DNA of 63,821 nucleotides, the filler included, from Reclinomonas americana ATCC 50394 (Eukaryota), in assembly GCA_048213135.1 (NCBI GenBank). It is 3 parts of 2 records of this genome, joined end to end, with 100 filler letters (N's around TTAATTAATTAA, not from the genome) between each part and the next. Parts side by side here need not be neighbours in the genome. Positions count along the whole stretch, not along the records: positions 1 to 27,350 come from PS015176.1; positions 27,451 to 50,479 come from PS015176.1; positions 50,580 to 63,821 come from PS015178.1. One strand, written 5' to 3'. The notes under the pieces were generated by a model that searched no databases, was not told the origin of the DNA, and worked only from the letters and a program-made list of their open reading frames with translations. Below are positions 242 to 57,198 of the stretch, one piece after another. Numbering within the stretch: position 1 is the first letter of the stretch; each line of letters opens with the position of its first letter. A program made the position numbers and the translations under genes.

Positions 242-1656
242 TTATTGAATGGACAGTGACTCTGTTTGCGAGTAGAAGCCGTCGCGTTGCCACATTGGCG
301 TCGCCATTGCGGTCGTCGAGGCCGACATGGCACGTGCCTTTTGCAAGTGCCTCTCAAAGATGCCCACGTCCACCGGGCTCTCCGTCAGTTCACGCTCCCT
401 CTCCGCACGCACTTGCGCCACGGCCTCGTCGACATCCCACGCAAATGGACTGGCAGCGTACAGCATGTAGGCCACGTAGATGCCGGGCGCAATGTCGGTG
501 ACAAACATAATCGCCACCGCGATGGCGCTCTCCACCGTCGGTTCCGGATGACCGTGCACGATGAATACAATCTCCGACGCCACAACGCCTGCCACACTCA
601 GCGACAGCACCAGAATGGCAATGGTGGAGATGCGCTTGATCTGTGCGGCGCTGAGTGACGGGCAGCGCAGTGAAGGAGCACACCGACAGACACACACCTC
701 ACGCAAGTACTTGAGAATGGCGTCCTCGAGCTGCACTTTTTGCTGGAGAATGTCGCGGTTGATGGCCTTTCGCACCACCAAGAAGCCCAGCACGCAAGCC
801 ATGAACACCATCGGCAAGAAGCCAAAGTAATTCGAAATGCCCGTCGTGTCTTCCGACGCGCCCACCGTCAACAGCACCGCCAGCATGACCACGTAGACCC
901 ACAGCGCTGCACGCAAAGGAGACACACACACACAAAGAGAGTAAGCCCACAATGCGCGCGCACTCTCCGATAGGCGAACAGGACCGCACCAAAGCCCACG
1001 ACGAGGAAAAACAGTCGGCGAGTGTAAATGGGCATGAACAATCGTCCGTATCTGATGCACACAACAAAAAACAAAGTTCAGTCTCTCCTCCTCCACTGCA
1101 GCAGTGACGTGAAGCACGCAACGGCACAAACTGCAGCTCCGCGTGCAGTTGCTTCCTGTGAGCGAGTGAGTACATGAGGAGTTATACAGACACTGCACGC
1201 TCTCACACACGCGCACCAGAAGAAGCCGACCAATAAAATGCCAAAGTGTGTGCACAAGAAGGGCACCACCACACACGCCTCTTTCAGCGCCACATTGCGC
1301 TTGTTGAATGCGCCACTGTAGAACACAGAGTACACAATCATGGCCGCTGCGTGTGTGCGTGTGTGCGGATGATGAGTTAGACGATGTGTGTGTGTGTGAG
1401 GGAGAGTGTGTGCGCTCACCTAATGCCGAGCCTGCTTGAATCAACGGGAAGAAGAGAATGGTGCTGTAGTGTGTGCTTCGATGTGGTGGTCTCCGTTGCT
1501 GTCGACACTGGTGTGAGCGCATGCATGTGTGTGTGTGTGAGTGAGTGGAGACGCAACGTAAATGTAGAAGGCAAAGACTGCCATCACGAGAAAGTAGATG
1601 CCATAGCAGATGGCAAGGACCAGCACACTCCAGTGTGTGAGGTCGATCACCGACAT
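242..1656 (-). CDS. Multi-exon ~7-TM membrane protein (GPR137/TOM1-THH1-like topology, tentative)
   Basis: ATG at 1656 (MSVIDLTHWSVLVLAICYGIYF); GT-AG introns; about seven hydrophobic segments ending FVTDIAPGIYVAYMLY; polar tail; TAA at 242. Confidence 0.65.
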
Positions 1657-1742
1657 TGCAACAAAGACGATAGATCAATGATCCAATGACGGAATGAGAG
1701 ACCGGAGGACACATGAGGATTGTTCATTGTGCTTGATGGACG

Positions 1743-54600: not shown

Positions 54601-57198
54601 CGACCTTGCCGTTCGGCCAGTTGAGAGCGCCGGCCGATGCTGCACGACAGCCACAACTGTGAGGGGAAAAGAAGCACAGCGGGTATTCTCTATCCGATGA
54701 TGCCCACGCACCGTCCACCAATCGTGTAATCGCTGAGCGAGTGGTTGAGGAAACGCTCACTCTCGCGGAGCCAGCGCGGGAAGTGCATGAGATGCGCCGA
54801 GGCACCGGTGGCCAACACCGAGGCGCGCACGGGCATAATGGCAGAATCGAAGAGAACCAAATGCTCGGGGAAGGAGTACTGTGTGTGTGTTGGCAGGGTC
54901 ACGTATGCGCGCAGCTTCGATGGAGGAAATGAAAGCGCCGCACCTGATTGGCAGTGACTTCGCTCTTGAGCGCGGTAAACTCCTGCTCCAGCGCACGAGC
55001 GCGTTCCTGCGCAAGCCGCCACTGTCGCTCATCCTCAGCCAACACGGACGGCGGTGCACCGCGCAGCGCATCCTTGTCCAGCTTGTACTTGGTGTCGAGA
55101 AGTTCGTCTTGCGCGGCGAAAATGTCGGAACGCAAGCGACTCACTCGCTGACTCATTGCGTCCCACAGCGCCGATCCGTCTTTTGTCGCACGCGCAGTGA
55201 GCGGCTGGCACACGCGACGGAGCACAGTGAATCGCAACTGACCTTGGTCGGCGTGCGAGGCACTCCGCAGACCAGGCACCGTCGAGAACTCGGCCACGAA
55301 GGCGCGCACTGAACTCACGCGGAACCGCAGCGCCTCTGTGGCTCGCGAGTTGACGTCCAGCAGACCGTCGAGCTTCTCCGCCGCCTCGAGAATCCGGTCC
55401 GTGAATGAAACCGTCTGTCCACATTGTCACACGACTGCGGCATGCGTGAGTTTGTGTATGCAAGGGTGGAGACTTACCTCGCTGTCCAAGGCGAGGAGGA
55501 ATTCGGCGGCCAGTCGTGCATGGCGACTGGCACTCTTGGCCTTCTTGTTGGTGCGCCCGCCAGCCAACTGCTTGCGATCGCGCTGAATGTTGACGAAACT
55601 CGTGTTGACCTCGGCCACCACCGCCGGACCACGCTCGGCAAACCACGCCGCCACGTCGCCGAGCAGACCGTTCACCGAATCAAACAGCGACGACACATCA
55701 AAGACGCGCTCGGCGGGCGCGATTGAGCCGAGACGGGCGAGCAGCACTGCGATGTGGGGTGCGTGAAAGAGAGATGGGAGAGAAGCACGGAAACTTTGCA
55801 CACCTTCCTGGTCCTCCTCAATCGACAAAACAGCAGCGCCGCTGTGCTGCTCCTCCTCTGCTGCTTCCTCGCTCACGTCGTCGTCATCATCCTCTCCATC
55901 ATCATCGTCCTCATCATCATCGTCGTCGTCGTCGTCGTTGCCATAGCCAAGCATCGCATCCTCCGCAGCCTGTCGCTCGACCTCAAACTCCTCACGCAGT
56001 CGCTTCAGCTCACGACGCGTCGTGCTGCTCGTGGCCAGCACAGTGGCCAGACGGCGCTCGTGTTGACCAAGAGCCGCTCGCAGCGAGGCTTGGCACGCCA
56101 CGGCCGCCGGCGCGCACCGTGCACGAGCCGCCTGCCGCCGAGAAATCGCCTCAAGAACTCGACCGCACAACTCGCTGGCGTCTCGGTCGGGCACTACGTG
56201 TGAGTGAGCAAGTGAGTGAGTGAGTGAGTGAGTGAGTGAGAGGAAGGAGAACAAGAACAAGAAGAAGAAGAAGAAAAAGAACAAGAAGGAGAAGGAGAAA
56301 AAGAAGAAGAAGAAGGAGAAGGAGAAAAGAAGAGGAAGAAGAAGAAGAACAAGAAGAAGAACAAGAAGAAGAACAAGAAGAAGAACAAGAAGAAGAAGAA
56401 CAAGAAGAACAAGAAGAAGAACAAGAAGAAGAAGAACAAGAAGAAGAAGAAGAAGAAGAAGGAGAAGGAGAAAAAGAAGAAGAAGAAGAACAAGAAGAAG
56501 AAGAACAAGAAGAAGAAGAAGAAGAAGAAGCAGAACAAGAACAAGAAGAAGAACAGGAGGAAGGGGAGACTGGGAGAGAGACTCACCCGCCACAGCCGCA
56601 CAATACTCGGCAGTCACTCGCCGCACATCATGCTCGGCCATCTCCAACTGCGATCGCCACTGTGACAACTCGAGCATGGGGTCTCGCACATTGTGTGCGC
56701 CACTGATGGACAAGTGATAGTCGGCGGCCGCAGTGCACTCGGCGCGCACTAGCATGTACAGACTCGCGAGGGAAGGCGTCAGCAGGCGGCATTGGAGAAT
56801 GCTTTCGCGAACAGTGGCGAGTGTGTTCGGGCTGAGTGGAGAGAGAGACATAGTGAGTGAGTGAGTGTGTGAGAGAGTGAAAGAGTGTGTGTGTACCTGC
56901 AAAGATCAAACAGGCGCTGAGACTCCGCAACGAGTTCTGCCACATGCACAGTGAGCAAATGATTGTGTGTGTATATGTGTGTGTGTGTGTGTGTGTGTGT
57001 ATGTGTGTGTGTGTGTGTGTGACTATGTGTGCATACCTTCAAAGATGCTGACGGAGATGGAGGGCGCGGCAGACAAGGCTGCGTGTGAGAGAAAGAGAGA
57101 GAGAGTCAATATTTGGGTGCGTGTTTGTGTTGTGTGTCATCGTGACGCGCGCAACAGATGCTGCCGGCGGCCGAGTCGGCATCGCTGCAGACTGACAT
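51660..57198 (-). CDS. Coiled-coil + pseudokinase + HECT E3 ligase fusion
   Basis: Kinase-fold motifs CVLKPF, HPGI, FLHSHDIAHTRL, KLVGFD, APEVL, ADIWAYGVVL; then HECT SVRREHLVVDA, DEAGYDGGGLLTNFY, FLEFVTG, LPIAHVC, GFHYM*. Probable ATG at 57198. Confidence 0.85.
56240..56565. repeat. Polypurine (GAA)n/GAACAA satellite inside an intron
   Basis: Lies between donor g|gtgag (~56585) and acceptor cgtag (~56194); flanking exons are in phase. Confidence 0.9.

Follow-up and report, generated by a model that had tools for sequence, protein, structure and literature searches.

How a spliceosome places its cut when the recognition word of an intron stands one base out of step is the question raised by a stretch of Reclinomonas americana ATCC 50394 DNA (63,821 nucleotides (nt), here called the window; assembly GCA_048213135.1). 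The window is GC-rich, contains N gaps, and carries short, densely packed introns with a median length of 67 nt; all of its junctions rest on DNA and protein evidence. An initial annotation had listed 18 introns whose 5′ splice sites (donors) carry an extra T, so that the conserved G of the common donors at +5 is found at +6, and it had described these as a recurrent class. The 18 sites do carry the hexamers assigned to them, namely 15 GTTGCG, one GTTGAG (19622) and two GTTTCG (23594 and 44175). The analysis supports a systematic second donor class with its conserved G at +6, and adds to the earlier account that this shifted class depends on the last base of the exon and on intron phase.

Three tests made without a donor model place GTTGCG above background. 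The first used an acceptor (3′ splice site) score trained on only 17 introns, all with ordinary donors, and 25 patterns were tried. A strong acceptor lies one intron length downstream of 19 of the 55 copies of GTTGCG(T/C) that follow a base other than G, compared with 799 of 8298 GT dinucleotides overall (9.6%; binomial p 4e-7), and on this enrichment a chance origin of the class was rejected. Controls altered at +3 gave 1/25 (GTCGCG), 0/4 (GTAGCG) and 4/35 (GTGGCG), and other controls 1/23 (GATGCG), 3/52 (GCTGCG), 1/13 (GTTGCG(A/G)) and 0/5 (GTTGCG preceded by G); GTTGTG gave 5/29, and the 7/22 of GTT(A/C)CG is borderline given 25 tests. Inside the modelled genes the GTTGCG word occurs in 37 sense and 11 antisense copies, a comparison weakened by the similar skew of GTTGTG (17 and 4). 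A finder that scored every GT alike returned GTTGCG in 7/124, 8/123, 7/127 and 7/135 introns over four rounds, and in the first two rounds it was the commonest donor hexamer. GTTGAG, once presented as a co-equal form, does not share this standing: it accounts for one of 25 shifted donors, and GTTGAG(T/C) is not enriched before acceptors in the window (1/13).

The position of the cut was judged site by site. An open frame is insufficient to fix these donors, because the GC three bases into GTTGCG always keeps frame, and all frame-keeping donor/AG pairs of 25 introns in the Maf, hydrolase and Piezo genes (the latter in its C-terminal half) were scored against homolog profiles. At 23760, 44930, 45036, 46483 and 47743 the listed G outscores every other frame-keeping position and the GC rival scores 4.4-8.0 bits worse, so that GC donors were rejected at these conserved sites. 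At 23184 the advantage in the bacterial profile is only 1.7 bits; there the flanking exons match human ASMTL residues 12-38 and, from the second residue, 41-66, with one split codon between, so that a single codon separates residues 38 and 40. Homology thus fixes the cut at six of the 18 sites, two more (44175 and 19622) are well supported, and nine are plausible without such fixing (32870, 39057, 41101, 41413, 4899, 57155, 50308, 1557 and 10616), among which 50308, 1557 and 10616 have in-frame GT rivals. The statement that the protein frame fixes the phase of these introns was therefore too strong for about half of them. A full-length Piezo profile proved uninformative in the N-terminal half of the gene, where a rival outscored the modelled donor in 11 of 18 introns. 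When a HECT-region exon served as homology query, none of 127 candidates passed, and the donors of HECT-like regions are candidates. A base other than G precedes the cut at 17 of the 18 listed sites, the sole exception being 23594.

The anatomy of the class was described from a pooled set of 113 introns: 26 homology-tested, 14 from a chain of micro-exons, and 73 predicted by a finder that knew the shifted class but drew its donor model from intron bases alone. Introns with N, outside 50-90 nt or with a non-GT start were excluded from the finder list, as were three superseded models, and the listed sites 4899, 50308 and 57155 lie outside the set. Shifted donors account for 25 of the 113 (9/26, 7/14 and 9/73, respectively), but because the homology-tested and micro-exon subsets are enriched by selection, a fair range for their share is 1 in 8 to 1 in 4. 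G stands at −1 in 1/25 shifted and 69/88 other donors (Fisher p 7e-12), and in the homology-tested genes alone in 1/9 and 16/17 (p 5e-5). Viewed from the exon, the shifted format is used at 24 of 43 non-G ends and at one of 70 G ends; G is also scarcer at its −1 position than in coding DNA, where it makes up 29% (p 0.002). Phase 2 is taken by 7/9 shifted and 1/17 other introns in homology-tested genes (p 4e-4), and by 9/18 and 18/81 in a wider set (p 0.037). Of the three codon positions in coding DNA the second has the least G (23%), and the phase 2 enrichment is attributed to the code seldom allowing G at that exon end.

The T at +3 and G at +6 of shifted donors hold by definition, and the rest of the motif is tight, with G at +4 in 22/25, C at +5 in 24/25, and T (20/25) or C (5/25) at +7. 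Donors after a G-ended exon are loose (n = 69; +3 G in 47, +5 G in 59, and C, T, A or G at +4 in 26, 25, 16 and 2). Sliding the common motif by one base would thus give a broader pattern than the shifted one, and the acceptor test, made without gene models, agrees (GTTGCG 19/55, GTTGAG 1/13, GTTGTG 5/29). In other respects the two kinds of intron are alike: the branch motif CT(G/A/C)A(C/T) is found in 20/25 shifted and 70/88 other introns at a median of 20 nt from the intron end in both, the median length is 67 nt in each, and the YAG acceptor and GC content match. Shifted introns thus have the GT...AG ends and the branch point near the 3′ end of U2-type (major) introns. U12-type (minor) introns carry an RTATCCTT donor and a long U12 branch motif; this type is ruled out by the GTTGCG(T/C) donor logo and by a branch motif the same as that of the other introns. 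The shifted introns are best explained as short GT-AG spliceosomal introns of the ordinary kind that carry a second donor format.

The standard arm of the U1 small nuclear RNA (snRNA), taken from PMC4856993, pairs with shifted donors at a median of −1.1 kcal/mol, compared with −6.0 for G-ended donors and −2.1 for 1277 random GT sites, in energies that ignore pseudouridine, the cap and proteins; it forms the shifted three-part helix at 2/25 sites. Among 64 computed arms that differ at positions 5, 6 and 8, the one with G at 5 and C at 6 alone reached −6.2 (shifted) and −9.7 (G-ended) kcal/mol, and a further change at 8 brought the shifted class to −10.5. An arm fitted to a motif makes for a circular argument, and the failure of the standard arm is the only real test. 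Common G-ended donors have G at +3 (47/69) and C or T at +4 (51/69), as the G5/C6 arm predicts; its two changes would serve both formats and would explain the near-fixed C at +5. The bulged register of ordinary U1, one of two explanations offered with the initial annotation, fares poorly. A +1 shifted U1 register accounts better for the missing exon G, since a bulge keeps that G paired, and a bulge would tolerate any base at +3, yet only T works there. The other, a variant snRNA, is now preferred over the bulge since no stable duplex forms with the standard arm, although no snRNA gene was found in the window by Rfam.

Both formats contain the word G-(G/T)-T-G-C-G-T and differ only in where the cut falls. 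In the common format it falls after the first G of the word (G/GTGCGT, the slash marking the cut; loosely kept), and in the second before it (H/GTTGCGT; tightly kept), so that the intron supplies the G absent from the exon. In the proposed mechanism a U1 snRNA whose arm has G at 5 and C at 6 would bind the word in a +1 shifted register. Its reader may be a single U1 that serves both formats, or a dedicated variant with a further change at position 8. U6 would then pair with the G and T at +6/+7, the extra base being accommodated between the U6 helix and the cut, and the shifted format would be retained where coding forbids G at the exon end. From the sequence, an altered U1 arm probably reads the shifted donors. 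The fuller scheme is offered tentatively: two U1 ribonucleoproteins, one for G-ended exons and a dedicated variant, its arm wholly complementary to GTTGCGT with an offset of one base, for about a fifth of introns, with a matching and routine +1 register at U6. The class would in any case imply that U6 is offset by +1 or that it pairs little.

Several points weigh against an altered U1. An Rfam scan of the window gave no match at the gathering score and no U1, U6 or U5 gene, and none of its five weak matches (E 0.79-4.8) was a spliceosomal snRNA. The shifted helix predicts A at −1, found in only 6/25; C stands at −2 in 12/25. Common donors after non-G exon ends are also weak with the standard arm (−2.3 kcal/mol), and a standard U1 is retained in yeast and Giardia although their donors have a pyrimidine at +4 (bioRxiv 10.1101/2022.06.08.495308). 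Poor pairing is for these two reasons no proof of a changed U1. To this are added the descent of 73 of the 113 introns from a finder aware of the class, the circular arm fitting, and the pseudouridine, cap and proteins that the energies leave aside.

It is unlikely, though it requires no new gene, that a standard U1 suffices, working in a shifted or bulged register with the aid of proteins (U1C, LUC7) or leaving the choice mainly to U6 and U5. Both registers are documented in humans (PMC4856993), and U1 may merely mark the region while U5 and U6 set the cut (PMC11162779, PMC11732430). However, random GT sites pair better with the standard arm than shifted sites do. That arm would also favour A at +5, where C is nearly fixed and GTTGAG is unenriched, and a bulge register does not predict the loss of G at −1. 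Less probable still is that specificity resides in a variant U6 with a changed ACAGAGA box, or in a sequence-specific protein, and not in U1. The distance between the cleavage point and the +5 G:U6 pair is normally fixed (PMC11162779), so that a G at +6 calls for some U6 change, and the exon-end link of the class resembles the U5/U6 see-saw (PMC11732430); the fixed part of the shifted donor nevertheless spans +1 to +7, beyond the usual U6 contact at +4 to +6 (PMC11162779).

Two further readings are very improbable. The true cut may lie elsewhere, at the GC three bases on, at a GT five bases on, or with both ends slid by one base. The GC at +4, where present, keeps frame, and the profile cannot separate it at 41101 and 41413, whereas it is the worse choice at all five well-conserved sites and at a sixth adds a residue relative to ASMTL. 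The double slide (a TT...GN intron with G at −1) yields an identical protein at five of the eight sites scored, and at the other three the difference is −0.7 to +0.8 bits; it would give up the YAG acceptor common to shifted and all other introns. The terminal G-G contact of the second splicing step would also be lost, and the double slide is thus disfavoured by parsimony, not by protein evidence. Boundary redundancy is absent in 19/25 shifted introns. With as small a chance, the class could be the footprint of an intron-generating transposon (introner) starting GTTGCG, as a near-fixed 7-base start and a phase bias could reflect a recent insertion burst. The intron bodies are, however, no more alike than others (mean local score 13.1 shifted, 13.5 other), and length, branch point and acceptor are as in other introns. 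A recent introner origin was rejected on the unrelated bodies and the lack of a target-site duplication, and an old burst would still need a donor reader.

The shifted class has partial counterparts elsewhere. Like the human +1 shifted-register donors described, along with +2/+3 bulge donors, by Roca and Krainer 2009 and Roca et al. 2012 (via PMC4856993 and PMC11162779), the present sites have their consensus one base into the intron, G at +6 and the cut at GT. The human donors are rarities read by standard U1, with 68 predicted +2/+3 bulge sites (Table 3, PMC4856993) and about 1.5% of donors in all non-canonical registers (PMC11162779), compared with 25/113 modelled introns here. A further difference is that the sites here have a GCG core that cannot pair with standard U1 and a strict link to the last exon base. 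Human shifted sites pair better with standard U1 through the shift than they would in normal register, a gain that is absent here (median −1.1 against −2.1 kcal/mol at random GT sites), and human bulge sites keep exon-side pairing with the usual −1 G, present here in 1/25. U1 arms have co-evolved with donors in Entamoeba (AACAAAC) and Mastigamoeba balamuthi (ACGUAC) (bioRxiv 10.1101/2022.06.08.495308), which share with R. americana an atypical donor consensus; there the matching changed arm is seen, here it is inferred, and they have one consensus in the normal register where the window has two formats one base apart within the same genes. The two-class see-saw likewise sets exon-end G against a strong intron-side motif, but its NN//GURAG class keeps G at +5 (PMC11732430), while the strong-intron class here has moved by one base. 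The normal partners of U6 are +5 G and +6 U, at a set distance from the cut, and the STAT3 tandem donor, with its non-canonical U6 register, shows that the U6:donor helix can sit off register (PMC11162779); that is one human site with a shift of −1, whereas a +1 shift would be needed here at about a fifth of introns.

Table. Genes and introns with shifted donors in the window; on the minus strand the donor is the higher coordinate
Feature	Position	Strand	Phase; exon end	Evidence or remark
Maf/ASMTL-like gene	shifted donors 23184, 23760	+		found by homology search
Piezo gene	listed donors 39057 to 46483	+		found by homology search
3-hydroxyisobutyryl-CoA hydrolase-like gene	listed donor 47743	+		found by homology search
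GTTGCG intron, Maf/ASMTL-like	23184..23241	+	2; A	ASMTL alignment
GTTTCG intron, Maf-like	23594..23662	+	; G	candidate donor, rank 5/10 GT/GC options
GTTGCG intron, Maf-like	23760..23816	+	2; T	rank 1/39, GC rival −5.7 bits
GTTGCG intron, FN3 membrane protein gene	32870..32947	+	0	plausible
GTTGCG intron, Piezo	39057..39123	+	1	plausible; 1.4 bits above GC rival, GT rivals require weak acceptors
GTTGCG intron, Piezo	41101..41166	+	0	plausible; profile uninformative
GTTGCG intron, Piezo	41413..41479	+	1	plausible; no GT rival
GTTTCG intron, Piezo	44175..44233	+	2; A	sole frame-keeping GT/GC
GTTGCG intron, Piezo	44930..44998	+	1	rank 1/14, GC rival −5.9 bits
GTTGCG intron, Piezo	45036..45101	+	2	rank 1/13, GC rival −7.3 bits
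GTTGCG intron, Piezo	46483..46549	+	2	rank 1/38, GC rival −8.0 bits
GTTGCG intron, hydrolase-like gene	47743..47815	+	2	rank 1/41, GC rival −4.4 bits
GTTGCG intron, membrane-protein gene	1499..1557	-		plausible; GT rivals present
GTTTCG intron, HECT-like region, beyond earlier list	2132..2198	-	; A	plausible
GTTGCG intron	4820..4899	-		plausible; no in-frame GT rival
GTTGCG intron, beyond earlier list	9534..9598	-		plausible
GTTGCG intron	10552..10616	-		weakest listed site; AAG acceptor weak, GT rival 6 nt upstream
GTTGAG intron, tectonin	19558..19622	-	2	sole GTTGAG donor found; repeat length kept (by eye)
14 introns around 13 micro-exons	20811..21939	-		shifted donors 21939, 21440, 21370, 21115, 21044, 20941 (GTTGCG), 20869 (GCTGCG)
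GTTGCG intron	50242..50308	-		plausible; GT rival 12 nt upstream
GTTGCG intron, beyond earlier list	52975..53038	-		plausible
GTTGCG intron near kinase/HECT-like gene start	57079..57155	-		plausible

The micro-exon chain belongs to an 85-codon gene model with an open frame (20676-22023, minus strand), the middle of which consists of 13 consecutive micro-exons, twelve of 3 nt and one of 6 nt. Its introns are 59-100 nt long and all of phase 0, and a single acceptor/donor spacing fits at each of the 13 steps; outside the chain, a YAG followed by a donor at micro-exon spacing occurs in about 53 of 3017 cases. All seven shifted donors of the chain follow a base other than G. The GCTGCG start at 20869 is a possible GC version of the shifted class, a single case of a hexamer not enriched across the window. 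The last exon of the gene matches a BTK zinc motif just below the cut-off (E 4.2e-5, 23.8 against 24 bits).

Further genes found by search encode a papain-family protease, tectonin, FN3, kinase and EGF-repeat proteins; the HECT-like regions were identified by eye. The best named match of Piezo is in Andalucia godoyi (45% identity across short stretches), and a Piezo alignment searched against metagenomes gave three loci of 39-52% GC and 40-63% identity, too distant to compare introns. The hydrolase gene also holds a purine-rich intron of 267 nt (48407-48673), four times the usual length. The tectonin beta-propeller lectin gene (18870-20430, minus strand) lies directly upstream of the same-strand papain-family protease gene, and its region contains a tandem duplication of 48 nt (20117-20212). 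A long minus-strand gene model (51900-57200) combines a coiled-coil region, a kinase-like domain found by search and a HECT-like end recognised by eye, and a second HECT-like gene end is found at about 1750-3450. At 58350-63821 two genes with related EGF-like repeat arrays face each other, their arms 77-84% complementary; one of them also has BNR-type repeats. A dispersed AT-rich repeat of 109 nt, 97% identical between copies, occurs at 61-169 and 16088-16196 in opposite orientations, where the copies lie near the window start and an N gap; it has no Rfam match, and a 30-base probe from it matched no metagenome stretch.

Shifted and bulged registers, co-evolved U1 arms and the two-class see-saw are each known singly. 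In the literature searched, mostly papers outside subscription, no report was found of a shifted format used at about a fifth of introns and chosen by the last exon base. The way in which U1, by marking, and U6/U5, by placement, divide the selection of a cut site between them is an open question, examined to date on a few odd human sites; a genome with the recognition word offset from the cut by one base in a fifth of its introns would offer a large natural test set. The shifted class would set apart the word that U1 reads and the point at which the spliceosome cuts, pose the question whether U6 can routinely work off register, and, through phase 2, tie the evolution of donors to constraint on codons. 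Co-evolution of snRNA and donor would gain a further case, and standard gene finders would misplace GTTGCG donors. If a dedicated U1 variant does read these sites, the major spliceosome of R. americana would contain a second natural pathway of donor recognition, one moulded by what coding allows at the exon end.

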